A DNA stretch of 64,000 nt from a virus (lineage: Duplodnaviria > Heunggongvirae > Uroviricota > Caudoviricetes). Of this stretch, positions 1,666 to 48,125 are shown in pieces. Position 1 is the first letter of the stretch; each line of letters opens with the position of its first letter. The notes beneath the pieces were generated by a model that made no database searches, was not told the origin of the DNA, and saw only the letters and a list, made by a program, of their open reading frames with translations. The position numbers were made by a program, and so were the translations under genes. The stretch lies in the IMG/VR virus record IMGVR_UViG_3300043411_001076; one strand, given 5' to 3'.

Positions 1666-1680
1666 TAAAATTGGTTACTA

Positions 1681-17607: not shown

Positions 17608-17638
17608 TTCTGGTTATTCTTACACATAAGGAAGTAAG

Positions 17639-18646: not shown

Positions 18647-18648
18647 GT

Positions 18649-20516: not shown

Positions 20517-20524
20517 CTCACAAT

Positions 20525-21109
20525 TTATATTAAAATTTCAGCGTCTGGGAATTTCAATTGAAGACTATCGTACACAACACTTTTATTAATTATGGGATTT
20601 TTTGTGAGATCTAAAGTTTTCAAATTATCTGCGTCTAATTCTAATAATTCATCCACATGAGTCAGATTGTTTGATGATAGAATAAGATGCTCTAAATTAT
20701 CAGCCTTAAGATTCTGTAAGTCTCTTAAAGAAACTAACATATTATTGGCTACTAAAATGCTCTGTAGATTAGGAGCAATAAGCCCACCTATTCCTCTAAG
20801 GCTTACCAACTCATTATTAGATAAATCTAATTCTTCAAGATTATTTAGTCTCAAACCGCTCATCCATAAAATATGTGGGACTCCATGATTAAATAAATCT
20901 AAAAATGGGGATTTTATATCTAATACATCACCACCAATAAAATTATCTAAGTAATAAGGATAAGCCCCAGACCTGGACCATAGTTTATTATATAACTGCC
21001 AAGCTAAAACATTACTATCATTCTTTTTCAACTTAGCGGCTGCATTATCTAGTTCTCTCTGATTTGCAATCCGAATCATACTAGCTAATTTTTTTATCTC
21101 TGTATACAT
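20525..21109 (-). CDS. leucine-rich repeat protein, IKKLA paralog 2
   Basis: NLEELDLSNNELVSLRGIGGLIAPNLQSILVANNMLVSLRDLQNL... LRR units; N-terminal EIKKLASMIR. Confidence 0.7.
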   Translation of the reverse strand: MYTEIKKLASMIRIANQRELDNAAAKLKKNDSNVLAWQLYNKLWSRSGAYPYYLDNFIGGDVLDIKSPFLDLFNHGVPHILWMSGLRLNNLEELDLSNNELVSLRGIGGLIAPNLQSILVANNMLVSLRDLQNLKADNLEHLILSSNNLTHVDELLELDADNLKTLDLTKNPIINKSVVYDSLQLKFPDAEILI

Positions 21110-22281: not shown

Positions 22282-23088
22282 TCAAGTAATTATAGTCAAA
22301 TTTTTATGTTTTTTTGATTTATATATTTGATTTGCTAGATTAGGATCTAAACCTAATAAATAAACATCTAGACCTTTTGTCCTTCCCTCTGCTAGTTTGT
22401 TCAACTGATTTACGATATATGGCGCATTGGACAGAGGGTTTCCATTTAAGAACAGATTTTTTAATTTAGGAAAATTTAAATCCTCAATTCCATCTAGATC
22501 GTAGATTTTATTTAATACAAGATGTATGTTTTTCAAATTAGGTGCTGTTATATGAGATAATTCAGATATGTGACTTATATTGTTATGGTTTAACAACAGA
22601 TTTCTTAATACAGGAGCATCCATTTGCGGGATTTTCGATATTTTATTCTTTTCTAAATTTATTCTTATTACCTTAGATAAGTCTAATGTGGACAGATCAT
22701 CAATATCTGTAAGCTTATTATTAGAAAAATCAATCTCTATCAAGTTAGGAGTAATAGCATCTCCTAATCCTTCTATTGATGTGAGATTAGCGTAGTCATA
22801 AGCAAGGACTTCTAAATTAGGAAAAGTAAGCCCTGCCATCCATTGTAAATCATCAACCGCACCGCCTAAGTTAAAAGCATCCAAGTGTAAATAGAAACCA
22901 TACGTCTCTGATACCCAATTTATGTATATTTCTGGATCTTCCGTTAGTCTATTACATAATTTAAGATAGGCTTTTCTAATAGAAACATCTCTAGGATCAA
23001 GTTGTAATCGTCTTCCTAGAATTTCTAATTCTGCATTGGTTGATGACAAGCGAATATGAGAAGCGATTCTTTTTATTGCTTTAAACAT
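22282..23088 (-). CDS. leucine-rich repeat protein, IKKLA paralog 3
   Basis: LRR units LxxLxLxxNKIxxIxxL (e.g. LKNLFLNGNPLSNAPY, IRINLEKNKISKIPQM); N-terminal FKAIKRIASHIR. Confidence 0.7.
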   Translation of the reverse strand: MFKAIKRIASHIRLSSTNAELEILGRRLQLDPRDVSIRKAYLKLCNRLTEDPEIYINWVSETYGFYLHLDAFNLGGAVDDLQWMAGLTFPNLEVLAYDYANLTSIEGLGDAITPNLIEIDFSNNKLTDIDDLSTLDLSKVIRINLEKNKISKIPQMDAPVLRNLLLNHNNISHISELSHITAPNLKNIHLVLNKIYDLDGIEDLNFPKLKNLFLNGNPLSNAPYIVNQLNKLAEGRTKGLDVYLLGLDPNLANQIYKSKKHKNLTIIT

Positions 23089-23163: not shown

Positions 23164-26100
23164 TTACTGTTCGCATCCACCAGCAGAGCAGGCAGCTTCA
23201 CCTTGAAATGAAGTTCCATCTTCTAATTCAAGCATAAATTCATAGTTCACAGGCTTGAAATTAGAAACAATATTATTCCATAGGAATTCATCTTTTTCAG
23301 TAACTACTTCTTCTCTTGGAGCAAAGGCATAATCTTTATCTCCTGAGTAGGGAAGCATCGAGATACCAGAAAACTGGAACCTTCTATCCCATAAGAAATG
23401 TTTTACATCTTCCCATTCATCAGGTTTAACAACGACGGTATTAGACACATTATTCTTAAGTCCTGGATTATCAGTATCTCTGGCAGTTCCGTAAGCAATC
23501 CAATTAGTCTGTGTCAAGAATACCCTCTCCAAAAATTCTAAAGCCGTCATATCATTTCTTGTTACTGCTCCTTCAGGAGCTTCTACACAGAACGTAATAA
23601 CATCTTCTGTGTCATTAACCTTTTCACACATATGGGGATTTATACTCTTGAAAAATTGATAAACTGCTTCACCTGGAGACATACGAACACGTCTAAAATA
23701 TCTCTTAGCATGATGCGGATGTATTCCACTACCCACACAACCTAGAGCTAAGGACGCTGTACCTGAAGGTTTTACTGCGGTAAGTCTAGCAGCAGAATTA
23801 ATACCTAGTAGGGCAGAAAACTTTTCATTTACTTCTTTGCATAATAAGGCTGCCCTTCTCTGAAGATCGGCATTAAAAGCAATAGCAGGGTTATCTACCA
23901 TTCCCGTCATAGAAACGCCCAACAAGGCATCTCTACGAGCAAGTAACTCTGTCACTGGTCCTAAATATGGAAAATCTGTATATCCAGCTTGGCAAGTACC
24001 AATGATTGTAGCTGCCGTCACCGATTCTAAAAATTCTTCTTCTGTCTTACATGCTGCAACATTTACTTCTGATAAATTACAAAACGACCAACCACATAAG
24101 ATATCTCCAATATTGACATTAATATTTCTTTCTTTTAAGAAGATTTGGGCTTTAGAATCAACAACATAGAAAGGATTGAATTGGACCTCGCTACAATTTC
24201 CACTAACAATACCATTAGCGATTACGCTATTCGTTTCGGGCTGAGTGAGACAGTACACATCTGTTCTCTCATCCATTTTCGTAATAGAAACTATTTTTGT
24301 AATGTGTCTTTCGGGCTTATTACAATCTCTACCTCGTTCGTCTAAAACCTGTGTAAGTCTTCTTCCTTTTGCCCCAGGTAATTTAATTGTATTTTCAAAA
24401 GTTATACAATTAGGACGGCTAATAATAAGTTCGTGCATAGGTTGGCATAGATAATCTTTATGGCCACCCTTTCCATCAGGTAACTTACGATAAGCTTCTT
24501 CAGTTCTCCTATACACCTTAGAAACAATTCCAAAACCCATCAAAAGATTTTGAATATCTTCCAATAAATCTCGATTAACTTGTGAAATTCTTAATGAAAC
24601 CGTTTTCTTTTTATCCTTTCCAGAACACAAGACAGTTCCATCAGATACAATCATTCCTGCAATATAGCCAGCCACCATTTCTTTGGTTCCCTTCCAAACA
24701 ACTTCTGGAACCATTTTTTTCAGATCACTGGTAGACTGTCCCTGTAAAATATTCTCAACTACTTTATAGAAATTTGCACCCCCTATTCTCTTTTTTGTTC
24801 CATGATCTTGACTATGCCACCCCAAATCATTTTTATTATTTAATTTGAATAGTTGTCTCTGATCATTAACAATCTTATGTAGTAAATCAGATAATTCGAA
24901 GTCCGACTCCCAAATGTCTATAAACGCACTTTTACCGCTGAAACATCCATCTCCTGTAAGCATTCCGAGAATAAATCCTTGATCCCAGCTTCCCTCCCTC
25001 CCAAATCTTACAGAACCAGAGTTTAACAAAAGAGTATCCCCAACAGATAACTCATGCGTTTCCTTTCTTCCATTAAAAGTAGGGAATTTATGGTTTTCTG
25101 TTACTTTTAATCTCTGCCCATGTTCTGTCTGTATCTCAAATACTTCTGCGCTCTTTTTGGTAAGGAACGCAGAAGTTGCCTTTCTTAGTTTATTTCCCTT
25201 TAATTCTGGAAATATCAGATCCCCTTTACCAACTCTGGTATCTGTATTAACACATAAGGGTATCCCATTTTTCTCCATATCTCCGATTTTCATCCATCCT
25301 TTACTTGTAGAGATCCTAGTATCAGGATGGAAACACGGATTTGTGCCGTAATCTAGACTATCTACAAATAAGAACCCAGGCTCTCCATATTCTTTTGTAG
25401 ATCTAAATAGTCTGCTATACTGTTCAAAAGTTGCTTGACTTCTTAATAGTACTGCCGAATTATTAGCGCGAGATCTCCAAGGATGTGTTTTCCACCATTC
25501 TCCAGTTTTAGCATTAATCATTTCCTCATCATCAATAGAAAATAAGGAAATCGAAGCACTGCGACGGACACCCCCAGCTAATACAGCTTCGCTAGCTAAA
25601 CATACGATGTCATGGCATTCAATAGGTCTTAAATGCCTGCCTTGAACTGAATCTAGTACTTTCCTAATACGACGAATTGCCAATTTAAGAGGGATATGTC
25701 CTGGTGCTCTACCGCCTGATGTAGACAGGTAAGATCCTTTACCTCTTATTTGACTATAAGAAAATTCGGTATAGTAGTCTCCTTCGACATAAGACATAAT
25801 AAGTGCATGCAATGCATCTGCCCATCCTTGGATCGTATCTTCTACGATATGATGTCTTACTTTGTCTTTATTAATATGCTTTAAAGGAGCTAATTGCGCG
25901 ACATGGTGCTTCTGTACTGAAAACCCTGTACCGCATCCACAGAGAAGTAAGAAAAAGGCTTCTTTAAAGAAAGAAAAACGATTGCATGGGCTAAAGCTAC
26001 AATTATAAATTCGTTCATTGATCGCTTTTACGCCCTTACCACCAAACTGCATAGATCGCATACTTGGAAGGGAAACACGATCTCTAACTTTATTAAAAGC

Positions 26101-26607
26101 CCATCTGATATCATTTTCAATTTGAGGAAACTTTTCAATGTGCATATTCTGTACACGGTCTATACTTTCCCCATGTACTTCGCGTCTAAATACTTCCTTC
26201 TTATACTGAGAATATTTAGCAACGTGAATGAAATCTGCTATTACTTCTTTAGGTAATCCTGGAAGCCTTTGATTTCTAAGTTCACTTCTCTTATTTCTAT
26301 AAAGAATATAAGACTTGGCTGCTTGGGGTAGATTAGCGCCAACTAAGATGTTTTCGACAATATCTTGAATAAGTTCTACATCAACGAAATCTTTATTTTC
26401 GGTGTCATTTGTCTTAGACAGTAAGATATACTGTGAAACTGCCTTACAAACATTATTTGTTAAATCTTCTAAATTATAAGTTTTAACATCATCACAAGAT
26501 AGTAAGCATTTATAAATAGCGTCTTTTATTTTTCCCTTTTCAAACGAGACAAGAGAACCATTTCGCTTTTTCACTAAAAAATTGGTATCGTAAATCGACA
26601 TGGACAA
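23164..26607 (-). CDS. ribonucleotide reductase catalytic subunit (ATP-cone; class II-like NPC[S]E active-site motif) interrupted by an intein
   Basis: N-terminal ATP-cone-like region; extein junction GTNP|CSEVQF matches RNR active-site NPCGE; C-terminal redox pair C-x4-C (AACSAGGCEQ); 380-aa Hint+LAGLIDADG insertion. Confidence 0.85.
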   Translation of the reverse strand: MSMSIYDTNFLVKKRNGSLVSFEKGKIKDAIYKCLLSCDDVKTYNLEDLTNNVCKAVSQYILLSKTNDTENKDFVDVELIQDIVENILVGANLPQAAKSYILYRNKRSELRNQRLPGLPKEVIADFIHVAKYSQYKKEVFRREVHGESIDRVQNMHIEKFPQIENDIRWAFNKVRDRVSLPSMRSMQFGGKGVKAINERIYNCSFSPCNRFSFFKEAFFLLLCGCGTGFSVQKHHVAQLAPLKHINKDKVRHHIVEDTIQGWADALHALIMSYVEGDYYTEFSYSQIRGKGSYLSTSGGRAPGHIPLKLAIRRIRKVLDSVQGRHLRPIECHDIVCLASEAVLAGGVRRSASISLFSIDDEEMINAKTGEWWKTHPWRSRANNSAVLLRSQATFEQYSRLFRSTKEYGEPGFLFVDSLDYGTNPCFHPDTRISTSKGWMKIGDMEKNGIPLCVNTDTRVGKGDLIFPELKGNKLRKATSAFLTKKSAEVFEIQTEHGQRLKVTENHKFPTFNGRKETHELSVGDTLLLNSGSVRFGREGSWDQGFILGMLTGDGCFSGKSAFIDIWESDFELSDLLHKIVNDQRQLFKLNNKNDLGWHSQDHGTKKRIGGANFYKVVENILQGQSTSDLKKMVPEVVWKGTKEMVAGYIAGMIVSDGTVLCSGKDKKKTVSLRISQVNRDLLEDIQNLLMGFGIVSKVYRRTEEAYRKLPDGKGGHKDYLCQPMHELIISRPNCITFENTIKLPGAKGRRLTQVLDERGRDCNKPERHITKIVSITKMDERTDVYCLTQPETNSVIANGIVSGNCSEVQFNPFYVVDSKAQIFLKERNINVNIGDILCGWSFCNLSEVNVAACKTEEEFLESVTAATIIGTCQAGYTDFPYLGPVTELLARRDALLGVSMTGMVDNPAIAFNADLQRRAALLCKEVNEKFSALLGINSAARLTAVKPSGTASLALGCVGSGIHPHHAKRYFRRVRMSPGEAVYQFFKSINPHMCEKVNDTEDVITFCVEAPEGAVTRNDMTALEFLERVFLTQTNWIAYGTARDTDNPGLKNNVSNTVVVKPDEWEDVKHFLWDRRFQFSGISMLPYSGDKDYAFAPREEVVTEKDEFLWNNIVSNFKPVNYEFMLELEDGTSFQGEAACSAGGCEQ
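24196..25335 (-). mobile_element. intein (Hint domain + LAGLIDADG homing endonuclease) inserted at RNR catalytic Cys
   Basis: Starts CFHPDTRISTSKGW (block A), LAGLIDADG motifs ILGMLTGDGCF and IAGMIVSDGTV, ends VYCLTQPETNSVIANGIVSGN followed by +1 Cys (blocks F/G); aa 425-804 of host protein. Confidence 0.75.
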
Positions 26608-28943: not shown

Positions 28944-29786
28944 TTATTTCAGACTCAAAAACTCATTAATTTTAAGCTTTAATCCGTCTATTGCCTTATG
29001 TAAAGAGGTACTATTGATACCTAGCTCCTCTGCTATTTCTTTTTTCTTCTTACCAGAAGACAGTAGTTCAACAATCGAAACCACAGAATCCCCCATACCT
29101 CTTTTTGTTTTAATCCACTTTTTAAAATCACTCATAATCATTTCTTCATTTGAATAATCCGAATCTTCTGTTGAGTTCTCTGTATAGTTTTTAGGTATCT
29201 CTGCTTTTTCCTTCATACCTCTTTTGATTTCTTTCTTTCTAAAATTTTTATACACACTACCAGCTACCATGTGAACATAACTTCCAAAACTTCCTCTACT
29301 AGGATTCCATGCCCCCTTTCCCTTGTTTCTAACAAGTAATCCCTTAAATACCTCTTGTAATAAGTCTTCTACCGATAAACCCTCTGACACTGCCCTTTTA
29401 GCATAATAAGCGTAAAATATCTTTTCTATATCTTTTTTCTTCTTTACTATATCTATCCCTGTATTAGATGGAGAGGTGACGCTCTCATCATCTACTACTA
29501 ATTCAGAATTATCTGCGTTACACGCCGCACATGTCTCTTTATAAGTTTTAATATTTTCTAAAATTCTATATATTGTCATGTCTGTTTTCGTATTTACCCT
29601 AAAATAGTTAAAAAATGTAGTGGCGGCCTTACTTTTCGACTGTTTCAGGAAATCTTTTACTGAATTATAGACAAACTCCCCAATCTTAAGCTCATACCTT
29701 TTTCTTTTTCCTTCCCCTTTTTCCTTAATCTGTACAGGTAATGAACCATCTTCGTATCTTGAATATAAAATATAAGTACTTTCCAT
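28944..29786 (-). CDS. sigma-70 family (ECF-like) RNA polymerase sigma factor with N-terminal extension
   Basis: Region 2: DLLQEVFKGLL...WNPSRGSFGSYVHMVAGSVYKNFRKK (cf. ECF D[LV]xQExF ... FDPSRGSFxxWL); region 4 HTH KKEIAEELGINSTSLHKAIDGLKLKINEFL. Confidence 0.7.
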   Translation of the reverse strand: MESTYILYSRYEDGSLPVQIKEKGEGKRKRYELKIGEFVYNSVKDFLKQSKSKAATTFFNYFRVNTKTDMTIYRILENIKTYKETCAACNADNSELVVDDESVTSPSNTGIDIVKKKKDIEKIFYAYYAKRAVSEGLSVEDLLQEVFKGLLVRNKGKGAWNPSRGSFGSYVHMVAGSVYKNFRKKEIKRGMKEKAEIPKNYTENSTEDSDYSNEEMIMSDFKKWIKTKRGMGDSVVSIVELLSSGKKKKEIAEELGINSTSLHKAIDGLKLKINEFLSLK

Positions 29787-29792: not shown

Positions 29793-29830
29793 CCTCTAAA
29801 ATAAAAAAGACCCTATATAGGGTCTTTTAC
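29793..29830 (-). terminator. intrinsic terminator-like hairpin in the sigma-gene leader
   Basis: AGACCCTATATAGGGTCT palindrome; on - strand followed by TTTTTTATTTT, then SD AGAGG and the ATG at 29786. Confidence 0.55.
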
Positions 29831-30596: not shown

Positions 30597-31217
30597 CTAA
30601 ATAAATTTTAAACCTTTTTCTATAATCCTAGTTATCTCAGGATGGGGATAACCGTTAATCATAATACTATCGTGCTCGATTTTTATCTCTATTCCATCGT
30701 CACCAATAGGCCAATTATTTACAAGATGTTTATATCTATCCGATAAAATATGAACTACTTGATTGTCAGAACCAATATATCTACGTTTTCTACTTGCCTG
30801 ATCTTTTTTAAACAAGCCATCAACTATGATATCTGCATTATCAATAAGATCTGACTCACCATTCTTATTTTTAAGTCTTTTTAAAGCATTAAGAGTAAAT
30901 CCAGTAAAAATCATAACGGAAAGATCATGTTTCTTTAGTTCTTTTGCCAATACTGCAAGAGACTTTGCTTGTGCAAAGGGTTCACCACCAATAAAAGTAA
31001 CACCTTCGATAGTGTCTTTTACTTTTAAAATTTCTTCCAAGAGAAATTCTACGGTAACAGTTCTGTTTTCTTTAAACTCTAATAAATGAGGATTACAACA
31101 ATCAGGGCATCTAAAAAAGCATCCTTGCACCCATAGGGCAAATCGTTTTCCTGGCCCTTCAACCTCTGTGACTGAGTTGTAGTATCCAATATTGAGAGTT
31201 ACTTCGTTCAATAACAC
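30597..31217 (-). CDS. glycyl-radical-enzyme activating protein (PflA/NrdG-like radical SAM)
   Basis: EGPGKRFALWVQGCFFRCPDCCNPHL matches activase signature DGPGxRxxxFxxGCxxxCxxCxN (Cx3Cx2C cluster). Confidence 0.7.
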   Translation of the reverse strand: MLLNEVTLNIGYYNSVTEVEGPGKRFALWVQGCFFRCPDCCNPHLLEFKENRTVTVEFLLEEILKVKDTIEGVTFIGGEPFAQAKSLAVLAKELKKHDLSVMIFTGFTLNALKRLKNKNGESDLIDNADIIVDGLFKKDQASRKRRYIGSDNQVVHILSDRYKHLVNNWPIGDDGIEIKIEHDSIMINGYPHPEITRIIEKGLKFI

Positions 31218-31226: not shown

Positions 31227-32402
31227 CTACAGAACATTTTTTAAGAATTGAAGCGGATCTTTTGGGGACTTCTTTAATCTCCGCTCCTTATAGAATAGTG
31301 CTTTTTTCCAGTCTTTTATTAAATCATATATCCAAGTAGTATCCTTAAAGAAGGATATGTTCTTTTCGTCTGTTGTTTCTCTTAGTCGTATTAGTATATT
31401 TTTAAAAAATACGGACGATCTTCTCTTATTATTGTCATAAGGTAAATGAATTATAAAGTCTATTTTCGATCCATAATTCTTAACATCTGTAATTTCTATG
31501 ATTATATTTCCTTCTAATCTATCAAACGTGAATGAAATTAATCTATCTTTCCTATCCCAATTCTTATGGAAGGTAAACGTAAACCAAGTCGGCTTTACAT
31601 TCAAACCAAGTAGACAGATAATTTCACTATGACTTATATCGTCAGAATTTTGTTTCAAATGTTTTAAAAATCTTGGGGAAACATGAGCATCACATGACAT
31701 ACCGAAAAACGTAAGGCTGTCATTTTCTTTTGGTCCTATTTTTAATCCGCATATCTGCTGACTTCTCAACATCGGCTTTCTATAAGCGGGTCGCTTACTA
31801 CACGGGTTAATTCCCAAATAAGCCCTATCTTTTAAAGATAGATATAATATGAAGTCCAAAGAATCACATCTGGTATTTATAGCGTAACTAAAATCGAATC
31901 CTTCTATAAAATTTGAACCTTTCAAAAATTTTATAATATCATCCAAACTTATTATCTCTGCACAGTCTATTTTATCCAGTAAAGCGACTAAAGATTTAAG
32001 ATATACCTCATGTTCCCTATAAAAAGAAATCGTTGTATACCTGTCTAAAGACTCATAGATAGTTCCTACCAAGTATCTCGGTAAAACATGAGATGGGGAA
32101 CTTTCTAGTATCATTACTATTTTATTATTTTTGGCCCATTTATTTTCTAAATCATCAAAATAAATACGTTCTAATATATCTGGGTCAGAGTCTGCGTCTC
32201 TGATTTCCCATAAAATCTCCAAAGATTTACTATCCCCTTGCTCTACGAACATAGTTATATTATCTTGTATAATACTCTTATCATCCTCCCAATGTTCGTC
32301 TCTAAAAGATTTTCGCTTATGGTATGAATAAAGGTCGTAAGTTGCTAATTTGTCGCTTAAATCAGATAATAATCTTAGCCTATCTATATCAGTATTAAAC
32401 AT
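31227..32402 (-). CDS. hypothetical protein (391 aa)
   Basis: Long ORF; no motif recognised. Confidence 0.5.
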   Translation of the reverse strand: MFNTDIDRLRLLSDLSDKLATYDLYSYHKRKSFRDEHWEDDKSIIQDNITMFVEQGDSKSLEILWEIRDADSDPDILERIYFDDLENKWAKNNKIVMILESSPSHVLPRYLVGTIYESLDRYTTISFYREHEVYLKSLVALLDKIDCAEIISLDDIIKFLKGSNFIEGFDFSYAINTRCDSLDFILYLSLKDRAYLGINPCSKRPAYRKPMLRSQQICGLKIGPKENDSLTFFGMSCDAHVSPRFLKHLKQNSDDISHSEIICLLGLNVKPTWFTFTFHKNWDRKDRLISFTFDRLEGNIIIEITDVKNYGSKIDFIIHLPYDNNKRRSSVFFKNILIRLRETTDEKNISFFKDTTWIYDLIKDWKKALFYKERRLKKSPKDPLQFLKNVL

Positions 32403-32470: not shown

Positions 32471-34636
32471 TCAGCCAGCATTAAACTCTGTAACGAGTTT
32501 TTCAATGTCAGCTTTCAATAGAGTCTTCTTATCAAGAAGTTCTGTAAGTAATTTATCGAATAATGGACGATTATCAGCCAAAATCGTCTGGCAACGTTTT
32601 TGCTGTTCTTTTAGAATATTATCAATGTGAACATCAATTTTATTCGATAGTTCAGCACTTACACTAGGACGATCATCTTTGTCGTGAACATGACCGACAG
32701 GTGCTGTAATTGCTCTCAATGTAGCATCTGACATACCCAACCGTTCTACCATGAGTCTAGCGATATCAGTAGCTTTTTCGAGATCGTTCGCACAACCAGC
32801 CGAAAAATCACCATAAATTAGGAGTTCTGCTTCACGACCGCCAAATAGGATGCAAATGGTATCCAGGAATTGACCGCGTGTTTGAACGTATTTCTTATCA
32901 CCTGTCTCATGCAATACGTAACCAAGAGCACCTTCTTTATCAGAAGCAATGGTAATTTTTTCAATAGGTTCACTATTTGTAGTCTTTAGTCCAATGATAG
33001 CATGGCCTACTTCATGAACTGCAATTACCCTTTCTTCTTTCACACTCAACTTAATTTTTGTAGATGCCGATTTAGGCAAAGCAGCCATACAATTTTCTTC
33101 TGTAAGCAAAATTTCTTCGGCTTTAATGAACTTTCCCTTCTTTGCAGTTTCTTGAGAACGTCGAATGGATTCACGTTTCAATCCGCGTGCAATAGCGTTC
33201 AAGTGATCACCTGAAAACTTGAGATTGTTCTTAACGTCAGAGTATCCGCCTGTACGATCTACGAGAAACTTAATCAGTTCGTCAGACAGATTAAGATTGA
33301 ATTTTTTACGGTACAGATCAAGGATGATCTTTCTATCGTCTTCTTTTGGGTAAGGAATCTCAATCTGCAATTCAAAACGACCAGGACGTAACAGTGCAGC
33401 ATCGATACTTTCCACAAAGTTTGTGGTGGCTACGATAAATACAAGATCTTCCTTACGGAATCCGTCCATTTCTGTGAGTAGTTGGTTAACCATTGAGTGT
33501 TCAACACCGCTACCACCGTAAGTACCACGGTGAGTTGCAAAGCTATCAATTTCGTCAAACACGATAATTGACGGTGCCGATTTTCGTGCCTTCATAAATA
33601 CGTCACGAATGTTTTTCTCTGAATCACCAACCCACTTACTTTTTAGTTCTGGACCAGAAACAATAATGATTGTGGCATCCAATGCAGTGGCCATAGCCTT
33701 TGCAAAGAATGTTTTACCCGTACCTGGAGGTCCAGAGAAAATCATACCTTTTGGTATAATTTCTTCAATCTGCTTAACCTCATCTACAGAGGTTAGTGTC
33801 TCCTTATAATTAAGGAGTTCAAGAATTTCGTTTTTAATGCGTTTTTTTACTTCTGAGTACCCACCGATGTCATTATCCAAACTTACGTTTGGAAAATCTA
33901 CATCTGAGGTGATAGTCATATTACGAAGTTCTCGGTACAATGCATTTGTCTGAGACTCGTCATCTTTATTATAATCTAAACGATCATGAAAAGACTCAAG
34001 GACTTCACGTAGTCTAACAACGTTCATCCCAGAAACATATTTATACAATTTGAAAGGATTAAATTCTTTATGTCCAAATTTCTTGGCCTCTGTCTGAGTA
34101 ATTACACAAGGCAGAATATCACGTGTAATTCCAGAAATCGTTCTCTTAGCCGAGAATAGATGTTCAATAGGCTCTGGAATTTCCAAAGAAGGATCTTTAA
34201 ACATGACGATACGAACATCAGGATTATCGTAGACAGCAGCCATCAATTCTCTACTCGTATCTGTCATACCTGATTTAGAGGTAGTAACTGCAACGTCAAG
34301 GTGAGGAATAAACAAGCAGATATTAGATTCACCAGAGAAAATTCTCACAAGCGTTTGTGCCAACAAGTGTCGCATAATATTTCCACCACTTTCAGGATCT
34401 GGACCTGCAATGAGGTGGCTGGTAAATTTAAATGCTGTATTGTCTTTCAATGCTGTACGAATAAGTTTATACACATAAGTATAAAGTTGCTTCTCACATT
34501 CAATGAGAACGTTCATTCCCTTTACAATCTTATCAACGATCCATTCCAAATCTTCACGATATGCGATTTGTACAGCATTCAAATGTGTCAATTTTGCAGG
34601 CAGTGAACTGATCTGTGTCAAAGTCTTATCCGACAT
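32471..34636 (-). CDS. FtsH-like AAA+ ATPase / M41 zinc metalloprotease, no N-terminal TM region
   Basis: Walker A GPPGTGKT, Walker [37 protein letters not shown] (HEVGHAIIG), [33 protein letters not shown] matches the FtsH protease core; ORF-track start 34729 is TTG, ATG 34636 preceded by AAGAGAGAAAAGAAG. Confidence 0.8.
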
Positions 34637-34736
34637 CTTCTTTTCTCTCTTCTTTTCTTGTTTTTGATTAACACCCACAGACAGTCTCTGTGAGTTCTTA
34701 GTATAAAATAATTGATAATGAATGTGCAAATAAAAA

Positions 34737-37929: not shown

Positions 37930-38023
37930 TTTTATATCCTTAAAAAATAAAAAGAAGAAGTAGAGTCTTAAATCGAAAACCCCACTTCTTCTTAATAGGT
38001 TATTCTACCCAGATTGTCAAAAT

Positions 38024-39327: not shown

Positions 39328-40119
39328 ATGAGTAAAGGTCTTTCAGAAACTTTAGAGTTTGCTTTAGATAGCAAATCTATCAGACCGTTAGCAAAAAGAT
39401 TAGACCGTATCCTTTCAGAAAAATATGATCTTGAAGGTTATTTAACAGACGAATCTGGATACCCTCAACTTGTATTACAAAAAGGCGATAAAGCAATTGT
39501 TTTAGAATCTAAACAAGATAACCAAGATTCTGACTGCCTTTGGACAGCCACTACATATTATGAAGATGAGTCTAGGGCGTATGTTTGGAAGAGAGACGTT
39601 GTAAATCAAATACTTTGGCTAATTTCTAATAAAAAACCACAAAAATATGAAGTTAATGAACCTATTCGTACTGATACTACAAAAAATGAACCTATAAGAG
39701 GTACTAAAAATAATATGTCTACAGGTAATCCAACAAATAACAAACTTGCCTATGTAAGAGACGTTTTTGATGTTTTATTTAGAATCATGGAAGAAGAGTC
39801 TTTTCCGAAAGAAAGCAGAATGGACCTTATTACTATGGGAGTTAATGAGTTCATAGGACTGAAAGGATTTAATACTATTTTTGAAAATATCCAAAAGAAG
39901 AGAGAAACTAATGCGTTGAGTTCAAAGATCAATCAACTAGAGGAGCTAGTTAAACAACTATCAGCTAGTAATAAACCTGCCCCAGGTGGATTTACAATTA
40001 AAAAATCTAGCGGTGGGACTCGTCAAGAAATTATCCGAGAGGATGATGAAGACGAAGATGAAGATGGTGAATTAAACGATTTCGACCAAGAACTAGAAAA
40101 CATCGAAGACGAAGAGTGA
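39328..40119 (+). CDS. hypothetical protein with acidic C-terminus
   Basis: 263-aa ORF; EDDEDEDEDGELNDFDQELENIEDEE tail. Confidence 0.5.
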   Translation: MSKGLSETLEFALDSKSIRPLAKRLDRILSEKYDLEGYLTDESGYPQLVLQKGDKAIVLESKQDNQDSDCLWTATTYYEDESRAYVWKRDVVNQILWLISNKKPQKYEVNEPIRTDTTKNEPIRGTKNNMSTGNPTNNKLAYVRDVFDVLFRIMEEESFPKESRMDLITMGVNEFIGLKGFNTIFENIQKKRETNALSSKINQLEELVKQLSASNKPAPGGFTIKKSSGGTRQEIIREDDEDEDEDGELNDFDQELENIEDEE

Positions 40120-40129
40120 GGGCAATAAT

Positions 40130-40621
40130 ATGAAAATCAAAAAACCTAGAGTATTTCTTTCTAAAGAATTAGAGGGTCATAAGAACCCTCTAAGAGTTTC
40201 CCTTCAAGAACTAAATAAATTTGCAGAGACACCAGAATATATCTTTTGGTTATGTCATGGAATTAACTTTATTAATTCCAATGCAAAAGAAGCAATTTGG
40301 AATCCAGTTTTTGAATTTATCTATGAAGAAGATAAAACCATGCTCAATAAATGTAAACTAAAACATATTATAAGAGCAATTGAAATAAAAGACTTGGACG
40401 CAAAATCTGCTTTATGGGCCGTACAACCCCCTCTTATCATGTATGAGTTGTCCAGATTTTCTGAAATGAAGCCTGAACTAAGGCTTCCTGCAAATAGCGA
40501 GATTTGGACATACTTTGACACATTCATCTCTAATTTGAATGTACACTCAAAACTCAGTTTAGAAGAAATGACCCATTTCAATCAAGAAGTAAAACAAGAG
40601 TTGTCCGAGATTGTTGATTAA
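40130..40621 (+). CDS. hypothetical protein
   Basis: 163-aa ORF. Confidence 0.45.
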   Translation: MKIKKPRVFLSKELEGHKNPLRVSLQELNKFAETPEYIFWLCHGINFINSNAKEAIWNPVFEFIYEEDKTMLNKCKLKHIIRAIEIKDLDAKSALWAVQPPLIMYELSRFSEMKPELRLPANSEIWTYFDTFISNLNVHSKLSLEEMTHFNQEVKQELSEIVD

Positions 40622-40690: not shown

Positions 40691-42235
40691 ATGAACGACA
40701 ATCAAGAACTCGGATGTCTGTATCTAAACCCAGAAGATTTACAAAATTTCTTCTGGGCCTCCCTCTCTGAGAGAGGTCACAAAAATGAACCTACCGCTTG
40801 GTCATTTAGACAGGCTATCACATGGTACATTGAACTTTATAGTAAAGGTTGGGACTCTGTCCCATTCTTTTTTGTTTATGACTTGGGATTGCTTCTTATG
40901 GAAGCTAATAAATTTCAATTCCGAAACTATTCGGAAACAGATGTTACGAAAAACACAGAAGAAGTTAACGCCCAGATTAGTCGTCGTGTAACCTATCAAA
41001 ATAGAATCTTAAATAGATTTTTGGCTCTCCCTGTATTTAGTGAATTACATGATTTTGTGGTAGAATCGAAAAACCCAAAATTGCAAATTGCAGCTATTTT
41101 GTCTTACTGGTTAGAACCAATTAAGAAATCTAACATTGAGTCTGTGCAGACATCTGCACAAATTCTAAGACAACTTACAAGTCCAGCTATTACTGTAGAA
41201 GAGGCTAGAGTAGCGGTAGAACAGTTACTAGAAGCCCCTAATTATTTCTATGATCAACTTGAAGAAGTTATCCGAGTAATGTCGGAGACACATCTGTCAA
41301 ACTTAATCCAGCCCGAAGACATTTTTATTATTAAAAATATCGAGGCGTTAAGCAGTGACGCCCTGCGTCTTTCTGCAAAGCAAGTAGTAGGTATTGAACA
41401 ACAAATGGGAGATGTAGACCATCCTCCCGTACATATGAGAAAAGAAGCACCCCAAGCACACGTTAATCTTTCAGACGTAGGTTTATATCCTCAAGGTGGA
41501 TTAGATCAACTTTCTAATAGAGGAAGTATTGAAAATCTTGTAAGAACTGAATTGGCTTATGTAGACGATAAAGCCGATATTGATATGTTTACTATGCGTT
41601 ATCTTGAGGGTGAGCTTCTATACTACACTAGAGATGAGGCACAGCTTCTAAGAAGAAACAGAACTACTCATATTTCCCTTGAGTTCGGGCACGCTCACCA
41701 TATCAAATACCCTAACCATCCAACTCAAATGTCTATTCTTTTACGGGCTATGACAGCCCGATTAATTGACGATTTATTTAAGTTATTTGCTAATGACTCA
41801 TTAAAAGTTATTTTACATATCCATGATATTAGATCTTCTGATGCTGTAGAACTGTGGAAAATCCGATTCAAAGATCAGTTGACTAGAAGTGATATGCAAT
41901 TAAATGTTGTAAACTCTCCTCCATTTGCTAATGTGAAAAAGAAAGACTTTAAAGCTTTGCAAGAAGAAACTGCTAAATACATTGATACTGGTAGATACTC
42001 TACATTAATACGCATTTCTCCGTTAGAACCTCTTTCTAATGAAGAATTAAGTCTTGCAGGTAGACAGGGATTAAATATCCTGCATCTACAATGTCCTTTC
42101 AAAAAGCCTGCTGAGAAAAAAGAGGACGTACCAACCCAACAAAAATTTATTGGTGTAACTTCAGATGATAGAAATATTATCGAAAGCCTACACGAAGCTA
42201 GAAAGTATCTCTTGTGGACTCTCTTAGGTTGCTGA
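40691..42235 (+). CDS. hypothetical protein (514 aa)
   Basis: Long ORF; followed by bidirectional terminator. Confidence 0.55.
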   Translation: MNDNQELGCLYLNPEDLQNFFWASLSERGHKNEPTAWSFRQAITWYIELYSKGWDSVPFFFVYDLGLLLMEANKFQFRNYSETDVTKNTEEVNAQISRRVTYQNRILNRFLALPVFSELHDFVVESKNPKLQIAAILSYWLEPIKKSNIESVQTSAQILRQLTSPAITVEEARVAVEQLLEAPNYFYDQLEEVIRVMSETHLSNLIQPEDIFIIKNIEALSSDALRLSAKQVVGIEQQMGDVDHPPVHMRKEAPQAHVNLSDVGLYPQGGLDQLSNRGSIENLVRTELAYVDDKADIDMFTMRYLEGELLYYTRDEAQLLRRNRTTHISLEFGHAHHIKYPNHPTQMSILLRAMTARLIDDLFKLFANDSLKVILHIHDIRSSDAVELWKIRFKDQLTRSDMQLNVVNSPPFANVKKKDFKALQEETAKYIDTGRYSTLIRISPLEPLSNEELSLAGRQGLNILHLQCPFKKPAEKKEDVPTQQKFIGVTSDDRNIIESLHEARKYLLWTLLGC

Positions 42236-42258
42236 TACACATTATAATAAGATAAAAG

Positions 42259-42290
42259 AAAAGCCCCAATTAAGGGGCTTTTCTTTTATC
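42259..42290. terminator. bidirectional intrinsic terminator
   Basis: AAAGCCCC-aattaa-GGGGCTTT then TTCTTTTATC; between convergent genes. Confidence 0.65.
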
Positions 42291-42297
42291 TACTCAT

Positions 42298-43172: not shown

Positions 43173-46100
43173 TTATTCCTCTAGTTTTTCTTTTTCTTCG
43201 TTATCAACTGGAAGAACGTCTTCCAATTCCGTATTTTCTTTCTGCTGTAAATTATTAAGATCTATAATACAAGACTCATCAATAAACATTGAGGGTCCAG
43301 AATCTTTATTCATATGGTCTTTTCTAGACCATACAGCCAATACAGTTTCCTCACCTCTTGTAATAGCTACATAGGCAAGTCTTCGTTCCTCTCTTATTTT
43401 ATTATTGTACTTGTAGACATTTTCTGATTTAGGATGGTCATAGATAGGTTTCTTATTATTCTTAGGACCAACTAAAAATAATCTACGGCCATCTGGAAAT
43501 GTAGTACTATTCATAACTATAAATACGTGTTTGGCTTCTAATCCTTTCCACATGTGAACAGTATAAATCGGAACTGCATCTTCTTCACCAGCCTTAATTT
43601 TATTCTTATTCGATTCAGCTATTTTCTTTAATTTAAAGAAATAGTCAACAACTGTCTTAATATCATTTATACCGTACTCTTCGGTTTCCCCCTTCTTTTG
43701 AGAAGCCGATAATATCTGCTTTAATGATAGAACGACAGGTAGATCATATTTTTTTACAACTGGAGCATTTGTGTCTGTTGATACTTCTAATGACTCTTCA
43801 GAGTCGTCTGTAACGGTATCATCTTGGACATCCTCATTTACATCATTTTTTACTTCTTTATCTAAATCTTTTAAAGCATCTCTCAATGTCTTTCTATTTG
43901 GATTACCGTCTTTATAATCTAGCATGTAGTCTAGTAAAGAATCAAATGAAATATCTGCTTCTGCCGCTTTTGCCCTAATATCTAAACACATCTTTGCATG
44001 GGATAATAAACTAGACTCCATAGACTTCTTAGAATAAACTGGCATAGATTGACTTAAAACAAGCCGTAAAATACCCTGCTCATTTAATAGTCTATCAAAC
44101 CTAGAATTTGTGTTTGTAAGTTGTATAATTTTCTTCTTTAAAGTGTCAGCAGATAAACCTGTTTCTGGAAAAGAAAGAGTGGCATAGAACATATCTGCTA
44201 ATTTATCCCGATCATCTACGACTGCTAAACTCAACCAATTTATTAGTCTAGTGAGTACAGGATCAGACATCATCGATTTTGATTTTATATAAGGAATTTG
44301 ATATTTTAAAGCAGCTAATTCAAAACCATGAGATTCATCATTTACCCTAATAACAATACCAAAATCTTTCCACTTTAAGTCTTGTCTTTCGTCTTTTAGT
44401 ACTCTTACTTCTTTCATTACATATTCACATAACTCGGAATAGCTATCAAATCCCCTAGAAGCAACCAATCCTGAACCCTTATGAGGAGTAGCCTGACATG
44501 CCATAGGAATTTGATAAGACGAGTTATGACTTATCAATGTATTAGCTGCATCTACTATCTGTTCTCCAGATCTATAATTTGTGGATAGTAAAATAGTTTT
44601 AAAATTTCCACTTTGTAAATCTGATCTGTGAATAAATTCTTCTGGGTCTGCTGATCTAAAAGAGTAGATAGAATTATGACTTAGTACATTATTTCCAAAG
44701 AAATTAGATGCGTCATTCACATCTAAGTCTATGAAAGAATCTTCTACTTTCTCCACAGATACTATTTTATCTTCATAGACATTTCCAAAATCATCTATAC
44801 ATATAACTCCCATTCCGACCTGCACGGTCATACTCATCATTAATTCAAAAAATTTCCCATTAAACCCTATTTTTTCTACGATATGCTGTCCATATGAAGT
44901 TGCAAATGTAAGGGCCTCTCTGTAATTATCAAAATTATGCATACCATTTAAATATTTGACAACAGTTCCTCTATCTGTATGTGCCAAAATATTTACATAA
45001 TTCTTATAAGACCTGTTACTGGAATCACTTGACACCCAAATCCTATGATTTGGTGACATAATTAATAGATTACCTGTATCTGTCGTTATCTTATATCCCC
45101 AAGTCCAAGATGTCTCACAAACATGAGATACAACTTGCTCAACTACTTCAGCATTTCTATAAGAAAGTATCTTATCTCCTATGTTTACCTCTGATAATAA
45201 CTTGTAACCATCTTTAGTAGAAATACAGGTAGTTGCGCTAAGACACTGTTTGTCATCCCCAATTATAGAATAAACTTCAGCAGTTAAACCTCTTGCAGGG
45301 CGAGATTTATCTTTGATTTCCCAAGTTGCATCAGTTGCAGGGTTTCTGATTCCTGCAATATATTCAAAGAATCTGTGTTGAGCAGCATTAAGATCCTGTC
45401 CCTCATCAATAAGAACAACTTTAAATCTGGATTGTAATTGGGACCGGGCATTTGAATTATGCTGCATTAAATCACCAAATGCCCATAATGTATCTGTCCT
45501 ATCAAGAGGAAATTCATTACCTAATACTTTCTGAATACTAGGCTCATTTCTCTTTAACCATTCATAAGCACCCCATACCGCTAACATACAGGGTGATTCT
45601 GGTGGTATATGAGAATTATCTTTTTCCTCTCCTGTCTCTGAATAAGTATTGTAAAAGTCCTTATACTTATCCCATAACTCTTCTGGATTTCTGAACTTGC
45701 CGCTTAATCTAGCAACAGCGGAAGCTGCATCCTTTATAGTCAATTTATAAGGATATCCGATATTAAACCACTGATTAGCAGGTTTGTATAAGTAGGGACT
45801 CTTCTTTGCTTCTTGAGCTACTAGATTTCTTTTAGACTCTTGTTCTGTGGAGTCTTGAAATGACGCTAATTTTGAAATTTCAGATCCTGTCTGAATCCCT
45901 GTTATATCCTTAAAATAAGATTTCCCACTGTTTGATTTAGAAAAATTGAAATCAGTGAGTCCAATAAATAACTCTATTCTTTCTATGTCTCTTTCAGAAA
46001 TTTGGGATTTAATATTAGGAGAGATACTTGTTATATCATTAGAGTAATTATTAGTGATCGTATTTCTTAATAATTTTAGGGTTGCATTAGATAAATTTAA

Positions 46101-48125
46101 TCTCTTAGTTCTCCCATATTCTTCTATGGAATCTTTTAATCTAAAACCTATATCGGAATCAGAGGCAACAACAATATTTAAAAACTTCACTAGAGCATAG
46201 TCTAATGAGTCATCATCATTAAACATCCCTACTTGACATACAGCCGCTCTTAATAAAGAATTAAATAAGTCCGTCTTATCGGTAAAATAAAACATTCTCT
46301 TTACGTATCTATCTTTACCATATTTTAAGAGTAAAGAAGCTACGGTACTATCTATAGTCCTACCGATATATAGGTTATCGCCTTTTAATCCGTCTTTAGC
46401 CATTCCTAAAAAATGTTCACATCGTTCCCTTAATTCCTGTGAAGATTTTCTAGTAAATGAATTTGCTATGATTTCTTCTGGACGAGCTAATCCAGACTCA
46501 ATACTTTTAGCAACTGTCCCTGCCATCGCTCTTGTTTTTCCAGATCCTGCACCCGCAGCAACTATTGATGATCCTCGTTGTAAGATAACTTGGGTCTGTT
46601 CTGAAGAAAAACCAATTCTCTTAATAAGATCATTTTGTCTATTATTTACAGCTTGATTAGCTATAGTAGCTGTAATGGCTTCATAGTTAGGGGTGGTTTT
46701 TAATACTTCATCTAGTTTCGTCTTCTCTTGATGCAAAGATAATGAAGCTGCATCGTATAAATTACCTGTGGACACATTAGCCAGAGTTTCTAACTCAGAA
46801 ACCTTTGCAGCCAGTCTATTTGCTGCCAATGCCTCGGAAGATATCCTATCGACAGCACTACGTTCTATTCCTAATCGAGTGCAGACAGTATCCATCCATT
46901 CAGACGTACCTAAAAAACTACGATAATTAGGAATCGTAGACAGTTCACCTATTAAACCTTTTCTATTTCCCTTTTTCTCTGAAAATATTCTTAATAAATT
47001 TGAAATGTCTTCTCTTAAATGTAACGGAAAGAAATTTGTAAATTCAGCATTTTCAGAAGAAATATCGATAATCTTCTTAACATTAATAATAACCTTTTTC
47101 CAGTCTCCCTTATCAAAGGATAACAAGTCCAAGGGTTCTAGTAATGCTTCCAGATCGGTATTTCCATTTACAATGGGATTTAGAATATTTAAAAATGATG
47201 CTTTAATAGTCCTTGTATGTTTATTGGCTATTAAAAGACCAGAAGCCGATAGATTCTTTGATTCTGGTGATTCAATCAAAGTAACTAGAAATAAGACTGT
47301 GATAAAGTTGAATCCGTCAATAAAGGATTCATATGATACGGATCTAGCTAAATTGTTATTAACAACAGACTCTTCCTCTAAACCTTCACTCTTCTTAATT
47401 GTCACAGGAACAGATACAGAGATTACGTCGTCTACCGTTTTAATGCCTGTAGAACTATCATCCTCAGAATCAGTATCTGAGGATGAGTCCATCACTATAT
47501 TTTTAGATAAGAAGAAATTATCAGGATGCCCTGTTATTGTAATGTAATGGTTCTCTGTGAGCCAGTTTTTCAAATCTGATATTTGATTTTCTTTTAACTT
47601 TGACCAATCAACTGTAAATGAACCTTTTAAATTAATCGGTGAATTTATATATTTTACACTAACTCCCGATCCTATTAAATCTCGTATTTCCTTCCTTACA
47701 TTTGATATTTCATCAACAGAGAGTCTAAAAATAATAGGAGATGTGATAGAGTCTCCCTCATCTGTATTTTCAGATAGAACAGTGTCTGCTTTCAAGGCAA
47801 ATATATTATTGATGCCTTCTGATATAGCAGTTAACTGGATTTTTGGAGCGTTAATACCTCCAATAGATTTTACATCAAGATTAAATTCAGTAAGAAATGA
47901 TAAAATCTGTTCTAATTGTTCTCTTGTCAACCTTCTGGTTGTTTTTATGGAGAACGACCCATAACTAATTGGATCTTGGCTGTCTAAATTTACAACGATA
48001 TTAACAGGTAGAAGAGGGTATCGTTTTGTTAGCTGTTTATCTATCTTATTTATCTGAGATTCAGATAATCTTATAAAAGTACGTTTTGCAGCCAATTTAT
48101 TCAGACAAGATGCAATTTTAAACAT
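43173..48125 (-). CDS. 1650-aa protein: ~500-aa unknown N-terminal region fused to a UvrD/PcrA-like SF1 helicase interrupted by a mini-intein
   Basis: Walker A AAGAGSGKTRAMAG, motif II VVLIDEGQDLN, motif III IIGDDKQ|SIYSFRSA split by the intein, motif VI TVHMWKGLEAKHVFIV, RRLAYVAITRGEETV. Confidence 0.8.
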   Translation of the reverse strand: MFKIASCLNKLAAKRTFIRLSESQINKIDKQLTKRYPLLPVNIVVNLDSQDPISYGSFSIKTTRRLTREQLEQILSFLTEFNLDVKSIGGINAPKIQLTAISEGINNIFALKADTVLSENTDEGDSITSPIIFRLSVDEISNVRKEIRDLIGSGVSVKYINSPINLKGSFTVDWSKLKENQISDLKNWLTENHYITITGHPDNFFLSKNIVMDSSSDTDSEDDSSTGIKTVDDVISVSVPVTIKKSEGLEEESVVNNNLARSVSYESFIDGFNFITVLFLVTLIESPESKNLSASGLLIANKHTRTIKASFLNILNPIVNGNTDLEALLEPLDLLSFDKGDWKKVIINVKKIIDISSENAEFTNFFPLHLREDISNLLRIFSEKKGNRKGLIGELSTIPNYRSFLGTSEWMDTVCTRLGIERSAVDRISSEALAANRLAAKVSELETLANVSTGNLYDAASLSLHQEKTKLDEVLKTTPNYEAITATIANQAVNNRQNDLIKRIGFSSEQTQVILQRGSSIVAAGAGSGKTRAMAGTVAKSIESGLARPEEIIANSFTRKSSQELRERCEHFLGMAKDGLKGDNLYIGRTIDSTVASLLLKYGKDRYVKRMFYFTDKTDLFNSLLRAAVCQVGMFNDDDSLDYALVKFLNIVVASDSDIGFRLKDSIEEYGRTKRLNLSNATLKLLRNTITNNYSNDITSISPNIKSQISERDIERIELFIGLTDFNFSKSNSGKSYFKDITGIQTGSEISKLASFQDSTEQESKRNLVAQEAKKSPYLYKPANQWFNIGYPYKLTIKDAASAVARLSGKFRNPEELWDKYKDFYNTYSETGEEKDNSHIPPESPCMLAVWGAYEWLKRNEPSIQKVLGNEFPLDRTDTLWAFGDLMQHNSNARSQLQSRFKVVLIDEGQDLNAAQHRFFEYIAGIRNPATDATWEIKDKSRPARGLTAEVYSIIGDDKQCLSATTCISTKDGYKLLSEVNIGDKILSYRNAEVVEQVVSHVCETSWTWGYKITTDTGNLLIMSPNHRIWVSSDSSNRSYKNYVNILAHTDRGTVVKYLNGMHNFDNYREALTFATSYGQHIVEKIGFNGKFFELMMSMTVQVGMGVICIDDFGNVYEDKIVSVEKVEDSFIDLDVNDASNFFGNNVLSHNSIYSFRSADPEEFIHRSDLQSGNFKTILLSTNYRSGEQIVDAANTLISHNSSYQIPMACQATPHKGSGLVASRGFDSYSELCEYVMKEVRVLKDERQDLKWKDFGIVIRVNDESHGFELAALKYQIPYIKSKSMMSDPVLTRLINWLSLAVVDDRDKLADMFYATLSFPETGLSADTLKKKIIQLTNTNSRFDRLLNEQGILRLVLSQSMPVYSKKSMESSLLSHAKMCLDIRAKAAEADISFDSLLDYMLDYKDGNPNRKTLRDALKDLDKEVKNDVNEDVQDDTVTDDSEESLEVSTDTNAPVVKKYDLPVVLSLKQILSASQKKGETEEYGINDIKTVVDYFFKLKKIAESNKNKIKAGEEDAVPIYTVHMWKGLEAKHVFIVMNSTTFPDGRRLFLVGPKNNKKPIYDHPKSENVYKYNNKIREERRLAYVAITRGEETVLAVWSRKDHMNKDSGPSMFIDESCIIDLNNLQQKENTELEDVLPVDNEEKEKLEE
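44673..45245 (-). mobile_element. mini-intein (191 aa) in helicase motif III
   Basis: CLSATTCIST... (block A), SPNHRIW (block B), IDLDVNDASNFFGNNVLSHN followed by +1 Ser; excision restores GDDKQSIYSFR. Confidence 0.7.

Follow-up and report, generated by a model that had tools for sequence, protein, structure and literature searches.

A soluble FtsH-type protease with a dead and a live AAA+ module and its ternary-system partners in a probable huge-phage genome

Here, we analyzed a protease gene carried by the DNA stretch IMGVR_UViG_3300043411_001076 (hereafter the window, meaning the whole stretch at its full length of 64,000 nucleotides). Full-length sequence comparison placed the encoded protein in the FtsH component family of FtsH-vWA-MoxR ternary systems. 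The probable scenario, in our assessment, is that this cytosolic protease, composed of a dead AAA+ module, a live AAA+ module and an M41 peptidase domain, was acquired once by a probable huge-phage lineage, where it belongs to a reduced module together with a radical-SAM enzyme (rSAM) and an ivWA protein. FtsH ternary systems were introduced as bacterial conflict systems in a computational study (Kaur, Burroughs, Iyer & Aravind, eLife 2020; PMC7159879, section 21), which already described the dead-plus-live tandem AAA layout of the FtsH component as well as a 'simpler' ternary type in which a helical-N+vWA protein is joined by a distinctive radical-SAM effector. Protein class and layout are therefore published, and the family assignment itself is ordinary. 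What is new here is the virus-borne, reduced form of the ternary-system protease module; none of the phage or viral-genome terms looked up occurs in PMC7159879, and PADLOC v2 holds no model for ternary systems.

The assignment to this family is based on 47–57% full-length identity to proteins encoded inside fvmX/bpMoxR/ivWA operons. A search of 5.8 billion proteins returned hundreds of full-length matches of ~700–750 aa in this identity range, with Myxococcota, Desulfobulbaceae and Sumerlaeia metagenome-assembled genomes as named sources of several of them and contigs of up to 1.1 Mb; Planctomycetota are also represented in the family. For example, P0061, P0006, P0020 and P0008 share 49–57% identity with the protease over the full length, and their loci carry fvmX3-analog, fvmX5, fvmX6, fvmX7, bpMoxR and ivWA (partner Pfam families: ivWA, PF19997; ivWA-helical_N, PF19996; bpMoxR, PF20030; fvmX2-7). 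Four bacterial loci (L003, L063, L064 and L150) show the operon order rSAM(Fer4_12)-fvmX6-fvmX5-protease-fvmX3-analog-bpMoxR-fvmX7, with ivWA further downstream in L003 and L064. An earlier note made from the letters of the window had proposed an FtsH paralog as such; these orthologs identify the protein instead as the FtsH component of a ternary system. A profile of the N-terminal domain (N-domain) detected 354 cluster representatives among 1.84 billion proteins and, in GTDB species genomes, 100 or more loci, which belong mostly to Myxococcota and Planctomycetota. Looking up the exact sequence of the protease returned no record. Altogether, the protease family is real but small.

The N-domain was present in all 120 best matches, including variants with two to three active AAA modules and variants with inteins. 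In P0018, P0021 and others (~980 aa) as well as in P0014 (1240 aa), the dead N-domain is followed by two to three active AAA modules and then M41. The bacterial proteins P0013, P0040, P0052, P0089, P0093, P0102 and P0103 (~1170–1200 aa) harbor a LAGLIDADG intein between Walker A and M41, and distant family representatives have 100–790 extra residues ahead of the N-domain. The protease of the window begins almost directly with the dead AAA+ module.

At its greatest extent, the open reading frame (ORF) of the protease covers 32471..34729 on the minus strand and starts with TTG. We set the start at the ATG at 34636, because this is the start in all close homologs (100% coverage, beginning MSDK...) and a purine-rich stretch is located upstream of it. 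The HEVGH and ANDLEKAT motifs of the protease align with YHEAGHA and ANDIERAT of Thermotoga maritima FtsH, a protein of solved structure, and residues H541, E542, H545 and D618 are invariant in 57 homologs. Walker A, Walker B, the pore loop and the Arg fingers of the second region of homology (SRH) are likewise present and invariant in the 57 homologs, so that the second AAA+ module possesses all features of an active ATPase (Table 1). The AAA and zinc-protease core with HExxH, third-ligand region and SRH, as read in the earlier note, was thus recovered with every motif intact by Pfam, by translation and by alignment to T. maritima FtsH; on careful alignment HExxH is retained, with HEVGH lying on the zinc site of the solved FtsH.

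The same note had described an N-terminal region without transmembrane helices and without a second Walker A, which agrees with our results. Within the N-terminal 290 aa, the top Kyte-Doolittle score over 19 residues was 1.16, compared to 2.3 for the transmembrane helices of Escherichia coli FtsH used as a control, and no transmembrane helix was found. Applying this measure to the N-region of 120 homologs gave a maximum of at most 1.5 in 116 proteins and of 1.51–1.77 in four. The whole protease contains a single Walker A. Judged by its sequence, the protein is a real, soluble ATP-driven zinc protease.

The N-terminal region is strongly conserved within the family, its invariant residues including C47, K49, D114, R129, E130 and D148. 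VLIECEKQ (aa 43–50) occupies the place expected for strand beta1, the P-loop and the Walker A Lys, and ICLFIPHLD (aa 106–114) that of Walker B, with PHLD at the Walker B position. As only 1–2 residues (E48, K49) separate strand beta1 (VLIEC, aa 43–47) from helix alpha1, this module lacks a P-loop. An hhalign comparison of the N-region profile with the protease's own AAA profile gave no signal (probability 0.1%), and a profile search of PDB sequences with the N-domain returned nothing significant. AlphaFold2 gave confident models (pLDDT of 83.8 over the full length and of 81.0 over aa 1–258), in which the strand and helix order of aa 43–241 repeats that of the active module at aa 297–500. The full model could be aligned with the tandem-AAA proteins Rix7 (429 residues), Pex1 (420) and 55LCC (372). 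Because of the predicted fold and these structural alignments, we interpret the N-terminal region as a dead AAA+ module, which according to the model is recognizable at fold level alone.

Next, we compared the protease with known AAA+ proteins. Canonical FtsH proteins are 30–34% identical to it, and the match to the FtsH equivalog model TIGR01241 reached 288.8 bits against a cutoff of 600 (NF008004: 185.9 against 1008). The core had been said to match FtsH very closely; this holds for the motifs but not for identity or model scores. The best per-domain PDB sequence match of the active AAA module was VAT/Cdc48 D2 with 157.6 bits, while T. maritima FtsH scored ~223–228 bits for the whole AAA plus M41 match and 111–115 bits for M41 alone; by this comparison, the active module resembles Cdc48/VAT D2 more than the AAA module of FtsH. 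Like canonical FtsH (E. coli HflB, T. maritima; TIGR01241), the protease has an AAA+ module fused to M41 with HExxH and a third acidic ligand. However, two N-terminal transmembrane helices flanking a periplasmic domain are typical of canonical FtsH, whereas the protease carries the dead AAA+ module instead.

The D1-D2 two-module layout is shared with type II AAA+ proteins (Cdc48/p97/VAT, Rix7/NVL, Pex1/Pex6, SPATA5/55LCC), and VAT D2 has nearly the same pore-loop sequence as D2 of the protease. Cdc48/p97/VAT, in contrast, have a double-psi-barrel N-domain, two ATP-binding rings and no fused protease, whereas the protease has no barrel and carries M41 in cis, so that it needs no separate peptidase. 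Compared to the type II proteins, its D1 has lost the whole P-loop and not merely catalytic residues. In Pex1/Pex6, D1 is inactive or weakly active and has a scaffold role. The plastid FtsHi/Ycf2 motor represents a reverse case, as FtsHi is a membrane-anchored, eukaryotic protein with an inactive peptidase and an active ATPase; the protease of the window has an intact peptidase site and an extra dead AAA+ module. The bacterial ternary-system FtsH component shows an identical architecture (dead AAA+, active AAA+, M41, no transmembrane helix), together with ivWA and rSAM of the 'simpler' type.

Viral FtsH-like proteins are known from the Pseudomonas jumbo phages MIJ3 and PA5oct, from Microcystis phage MaAM05 and from Yasminevirus/Megaviridae (FtsH/Yme1-like). 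They likewise combine AAA+ and M41. These proteins are only 24–32% identical to the protease; the matches begin at ~aa 190–255 and none spans the N-domain. No phage record covered at least 80% of the protease, and the BFVD matches had a TMq of at most 0.49. In PADLOC v2, the protease matched generic AAA entries only (IetA, TRIP13, and mad8 at 7.5e-05; aa ~226–540), and ivWA and X391, the product of the gene between protease and rSAM, gave no match.

The window encodes two proteins characteristic of the ternary systems. The first is the rSAM, which is 49% identical to the rSAM of the bacterial operon L003 and scores 2e-78 against a hidden Markov model (HMM) of three operon rSAMs. The enzyme is reminiscent of a glycyl-radical activase, and its best NCBIfam match is the ribonucleotide reductase (RNR) activase NrdG (TIGR02491, 1e-28), with an RNR gene located 4 kb downstream. 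It might therefore be asked whether the rSAM is simply the phage NrdG, which would make its adjacency to the protease coincidental and leave no module. We consider this very unlikely: the NrdG score of 100.2 bits is below the cutoff of 126.1, the catalytic region of the RNR matches class II B12-dependent RTPR/NrdJ models, which need no activase, and no RNR gene was found within ±8–10 kb of the bacterial FtsH-system operons, to whose rSAMs the protein is so similar. The pairing of an NrdG with a class III RNR was accordingly rejected.

The second protein is ivWA, with 30% identity to the ivWA of L003 (2e-50; HMM 3.5e-61) and 30–33% to bacterial ivWA proteins. A motif scan of the ORF found no DxSxS MIDAS (metal ion-dependent adhesion site) motif; MIDAS loss has been noted for some ivWA members (PMC7159879). 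The presence of rSAM and ivWA in the window points to a specific multi-protein module rather than to a general remodelling of host proteolysis.

This bears on the possibility of a general-purpose viral FtsH, namely a stand-alone cytosolic protease for quality control or host takeover, with broad targets and independent of its neighbor genes. Such a role would fit the fully intact catalytic motifs, the contigs L147 and L148, which carry the protease without a recognizable partner in the available sequence, and the FtsH-like protein of jumbo phage MIJ3, which has been reported with a homolog in PA5oct (PMC6892783). On the other hand, the family is narrow and in bacteria almost always found within a dedicated multi-gene system, the system-specific rSAM and ivWA are retained and conserved in the lineage of the window, and the PA5oct/MIJ3 proteins are of a different kind, with only 29% identity and a similarity limited to aa 193–635 of the protease. 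We therefore regard a general-purpose role as improbable and return to the reduced ternary-system module.

Between the protease and rSAM genes lies the gene of X391. In the bacterial systems, the order is rSAM-fvmX6-fvmX5-protease, whereas the window shows protease-X391-rSAM with X391 adjoining rSAM. X391 shares 51% and 35% identity with the syntenic genes of the related contigs L145 and L001, respectively, and its position is conserved in related contigs. Only three relatives, all lineage-specific, were found among the 5.8 billion proteins, and there was no match in Pfam, PHROG or NCBIfam. A protein located on a 76-kb JGI contig (P0121) shows 100% identity to X391; further related contigs stem from SRR30862820, SRR5571007, ERZ27249664 and SRR35185575. 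An identification of X391 as fvmX6 was rejected, as hhalign was not significant and no similarity was seen. Two small genes of 263 and 163 codons (up263 and up163) precede ivWA. Separately, a CobS/MoxR-like protein with the atypical P-loop GTSGCGKD, the only AAA_5 protein of the window, is encoded at 62245–63291 (minus strand) and does not match PF20030. It adjoins a divergently transcribed gene for a 680-aa VWA protein, which starts at 63303 (plus strand) and runs past the right end of the window at 64000 (4199–6241 in L151). Together they make up a MoxR-like/vWA pair of their own, at a distance of ~28 kb from the protease.

After comparing the gene content, we looked into the history of the protease within its lineage. 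Synteny with the window around the protease, X391, rSAM and RNR genes is seen in L145, whose protease is 78% identical, and in L001/L002 (63%). In a neighbor-joining tree of the protease family, rooted on the two-AAA class, the window and P0001–P0004 were monophyletic in 100/100 bootstraps and nested in the bacterial single-AAA family. That they form one clade inside a bacterial family suggests a single acquisition of the protease gene by this lineage; the transfer would have led from bacteria to an ancestor of the phage lineage. Between the window and its relatives, dN/dS amounted to 0.08–0.12 in the protease and to 0.09 in rSAM; saturation of dS makes these values rough, yet dN stays far lower than dS. 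On this measure, the protease and rSAM genes are maintained by purifying selection. Since the three genes are under purifying selection or kept in synteny across diverged relatives, a reduced but working module is most likely used by the phage.

The nearest tree neighbors, with weak support (48%), are P0011 and P0012, located on ORFan-rich contigs without recognizable partners (L148, L147). P0015 (L149) has ivWA and fvmX3-analog as neighbors, together with ORFans and an IF-1-like gene. L147, L148 and L149, which encode the nearest protease relatives outside the lineage (51–55% identity), are ORFan-rich contigs of 44–61% GC with a dihydrofolate reductase or IF-1-like gene and few or no partners. 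They may represent further viral carriers of the protease family.

A phage origin of the window is likely, although not proven, which is in line with the virus-encoded protease assumed in the earlier note; a large phage is the most likely carrier. The window encodes a DNA polymerase, a primase, a DnaB-like helicase, two large helicases, a thymidine kinase, an intein-bearing class II RNR, a sigma factor of the extracytoplasmic function (ECF) type and leucine-rich-repeat (LRR) proteins, and the large majority of its ORFs have no family match. No tRNA, rRNA or housekeeping genes were found in it. The sole long match of its DNA polymerase is LR745208.1, a 485-kb record deposited as uncultured phage. 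Moreover, 12 consecutive ORFs of the replication module (43–60 kb) are collinear with a 50-kb stretch of this record at 29–45% identity. No nucleotide-level relative of the window was found in INPHARED.

Several points weigh against the overall picture of a virus-borne, reduced ternary-system module. With respect to the module, ivWA is located ~6 kb from the protease, on the opposite strand and in a separate transcription unit. bpMoxR was not found in the 64-kb window by blastp, phmmer, a three-sequence HMM or Pfam scans, and fvmX3-analog, fvmX5, fvmX6 and fvmX7 were not found among the window ORFs, including the small ORFs after ivWA, by Pfam, blastp, phmmer, small HMMs or hhalign; the partner HMMs, built from 3–5 sequences each, are of limited sensitivity. 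The known bacterial systems differ in their hosts, Myxococcota and Planctomycetota, as well as in their gene set from the AT-rich (33% GC), probably huge-phage genome sampled here. When applied to 34 bacterial loci in which the protease is flanked on either side by at least 8 kb, the same HMMs scored fvmX3-analog in 30, fvmX7 in 27, fvmX5 in 25, rSAM, fvmX6 and bpMoxR in 17 each and ivWA in 14. As bpMoxR scored in just 17/34 bacterial loci, its absence is less telling than that of fvmX3-analog and fvmX7. Because bpMoxR and the commonest bacterial partners were undetected, the module of the window may work differently from the bacterial systems or be a remnant. Furthermore, the hexamer, substrate threading, the ivWA–protease interaction and the rSAM substrate are all features that we infer. 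Our literature search returned the computational paper of 2020 and no later one; neither experiments on members of the FtsH ternary systems nor biochemical evidence for members of the protease family came to light.

With respect to the virus, no capsid, portal, terminase or other virion gene was seen among 51 window ORFs using PHROG and Pfam; the viral assignment therefore rests on the replication module and the general gene content. The protease family, defined by its N-domain, and ivWA were not found in INPHARED, IMG/VR or BFVD, and a search of the phage collection for ivWA homologs returned none. In IMG/VR, generic GPPGTGKT matches dominated the scan made with the full-length alignment, and a rescan with N-domain patterns found no viral relative. 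This absence from IMG/VR and INPHARED fits novelty, yet leaves the viral nature without independent confirmation. Together with the lack of virion hallmark genes in the 64 kb and the bacterial nature of the described ternary systems (PMC7159879), it could also indicate that the region is non-viral and derives from an AT-rich bacterium, in which an eroded FtsH ternary defence system would lie on the chromosome, a plasmid or another element. This explanation appears quite unlikely to us in view of the 12 replication genes collinear with LR745208.1, of the window's own replication and nucleotide metabolism genes and sigma factor amid mostly family-less ORFs, and of the GC content, which is 40–78% in the bacterial loci. 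In addition, none of 185,579 GTDB species-representative genomes held a match above 50%, the best N-domain identity being 49%. A huge-phage lineage remains the favored carrier of the module.

Table 1 Features of the protease gene and its surroundings in the window.
Feature	Position	Strand	Remarks
Protease gene (soluble tandem-AAA+/M41, FtsH-type component of FtsH ternary system)	32471..34636	-	721 aa; TGA stop 32471-32473
Degenerate N-terminal AAA+ module, P-loop gone	33902..34594	-	aa ~15-245
Active classical-clade AAA+ module	33137..33859	-	aa ~260-500; Pfam AAA (PF00004) at aa 298-429, E = 6e-42; motifs checked by translation
Walker A GPPGTGKT	33710-33733	-	aa 302-309
Pore loop SKWVGD	33623-33640	-	aa 333-338
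Walker B IIVFDEID	33545-33568	-	aa 357-364
SRH with Arg fingers	33374-33427	-	aa 404-421
Peptidase M41 domain	32495..33049	-	aa 530-714; Pfam Peptidase_M41 (PF01434), E = 5e-41
HEVGH of zinc site	33002-33016	-	aa 541-545
Third-ligand region CANDLEKA, including D618	32771-32794	-	aa 615-622
X391, lineage-specific 391-aa protein	31227..32402	-	between protease and rSAM genes
Radical-SAM enzyme (rSAM)	30597..31217	-	Pfam Fer4_12, 6.5e-32; intact CX3CX2C at aa 33-40; ternary-system type
Terminator-like hairpin ending the minus-strand unit X321-X151-X335-protease-X391-rSAM-X209	29805..29828	-	pattern match
Matching hairpin upstream of that minus-strand unit	37952-37993		pattern match
Two small genes (263 + 163 aa; up263, up163) upstream of ivWA	39328..40621	+	41-43% identity to syntenic L001 genes; no family match
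ivWA protein (N-terminal helical region + divergent vWA)	40691..42235	+	PF19997 6.9e-26 (91 bits, cutoff 35) and PF19996 1.4e-9 (38 bits, cutoff 27), both above cutoff
Strong terminator-like hairpin, 18-bp stem	42250..42291	+	directly after ivWA

As for transcription, the protease gene is probably co-transcribed with the other genes of the minus-strand unit bounded by the hairpins (Table 1). A scan of the window for sigma-70 promoters found fewer sites than in shuffled sequences and is thus uninformative. Further genes surround this unit. The class II (B12-dependent, RTPR-type) RNR at 23164–26607 (minus strand) has an N-terminal ATP-cone and a LAGLIDADG intein at aa ~425–805; a match to the intein part is also present in LR745208.1, whose DNA polymerase is interrupted by the matching insert (L146, ~23.7–24.7 kb). 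An ECF-like factor of the sigma-70 family is encoded at 28944–29786 (minus strand; sigma70_r2; TIGR02937 6.5e-8, below cutoff) downstream of the protease-X391-rSAM block and is conserved in L145 and L001 at ~50% identity. Three LRR proteins are located at 19701–21109 and 22282–23088 (minus strand), with LRR genes at the same relative position in L001. At 15565–19704 (plus strand), four tandem paralogous ORFs of 331–351 aa show 25–38% mutual identity and no family match. The 1650-aa product of the gene at 43173–48125 (minus strand) ends in a phage-type helicase (phrog_1967), which makes up its C-terminal third; three segments of the protein match LR745208.1, and the N-terminal ~960 aa also match L001. 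Finally, 403–3054 and 5569–7194 (plus strand) encode a DUF4419 protein, an ADP-ribosylglycohydrolase and a phrog_850 'RNA-binding protein' with an HNH endonuclease-like region.

How could the virus-borne module work? By analogy with FtsH and Cdc48-type machines, the protease would assemble into a stacked-ring hexamer, in which the active AAA ring would unfold substrates and, by means of the Trp335 pore loop, thread them into the chamber formed by M41. By the same analogy, the dead ring could serve as a scaffold or docking platform and replace the membrane anchor of true FtsH. vWA proteins have a general role as peptide-binding co-factors of AAA+ partners (PMC7159879, section 8). Considering this role and the operon logic, ivWA might act as an adaptor or substrate-binder that recruits or presents targets to the protease. 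Following the operon logic as well, the rSAM may modify a protein or peptide partner, for which X391 would be an obvious candidate. As to the purpose, we speculate that the module is not meant for housekeeping proteolysis but for conflicts of the phage with its host or with other phages, for example for counter-defence or exclusion.

A more far-reaching version, which we put forward only tentatively and hold to be rather doubtful, is that huge phages captured the core of the ternary systems (protease, vWA adaptor and rSAM) and run it without the MoxR switch as a viral weapon. The lineage of the window would then form a distinct viral clade with L147, L148 and L149, and X391 would be a new rSAM substrate or effector. 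The targets of such a weapon might be host defence complexes, which it would destroy or hijack, or it might keep out competing phages.

For the family, the compact three-gene version carried by the virus, comprising a soluble protease free of a membrane anchor, ivWA and a small rSAM, would offer a simpler entry point to the biochemistry of ternary systems than the bacterial operons with their 8–10 genes. It also represents a candidate case of a phage taking over immune-type machinery of its hosts. Should it turn out to serve counter-defence or exclusion between phages, the range of functions known from huge phages would be extended by a protease-based module.

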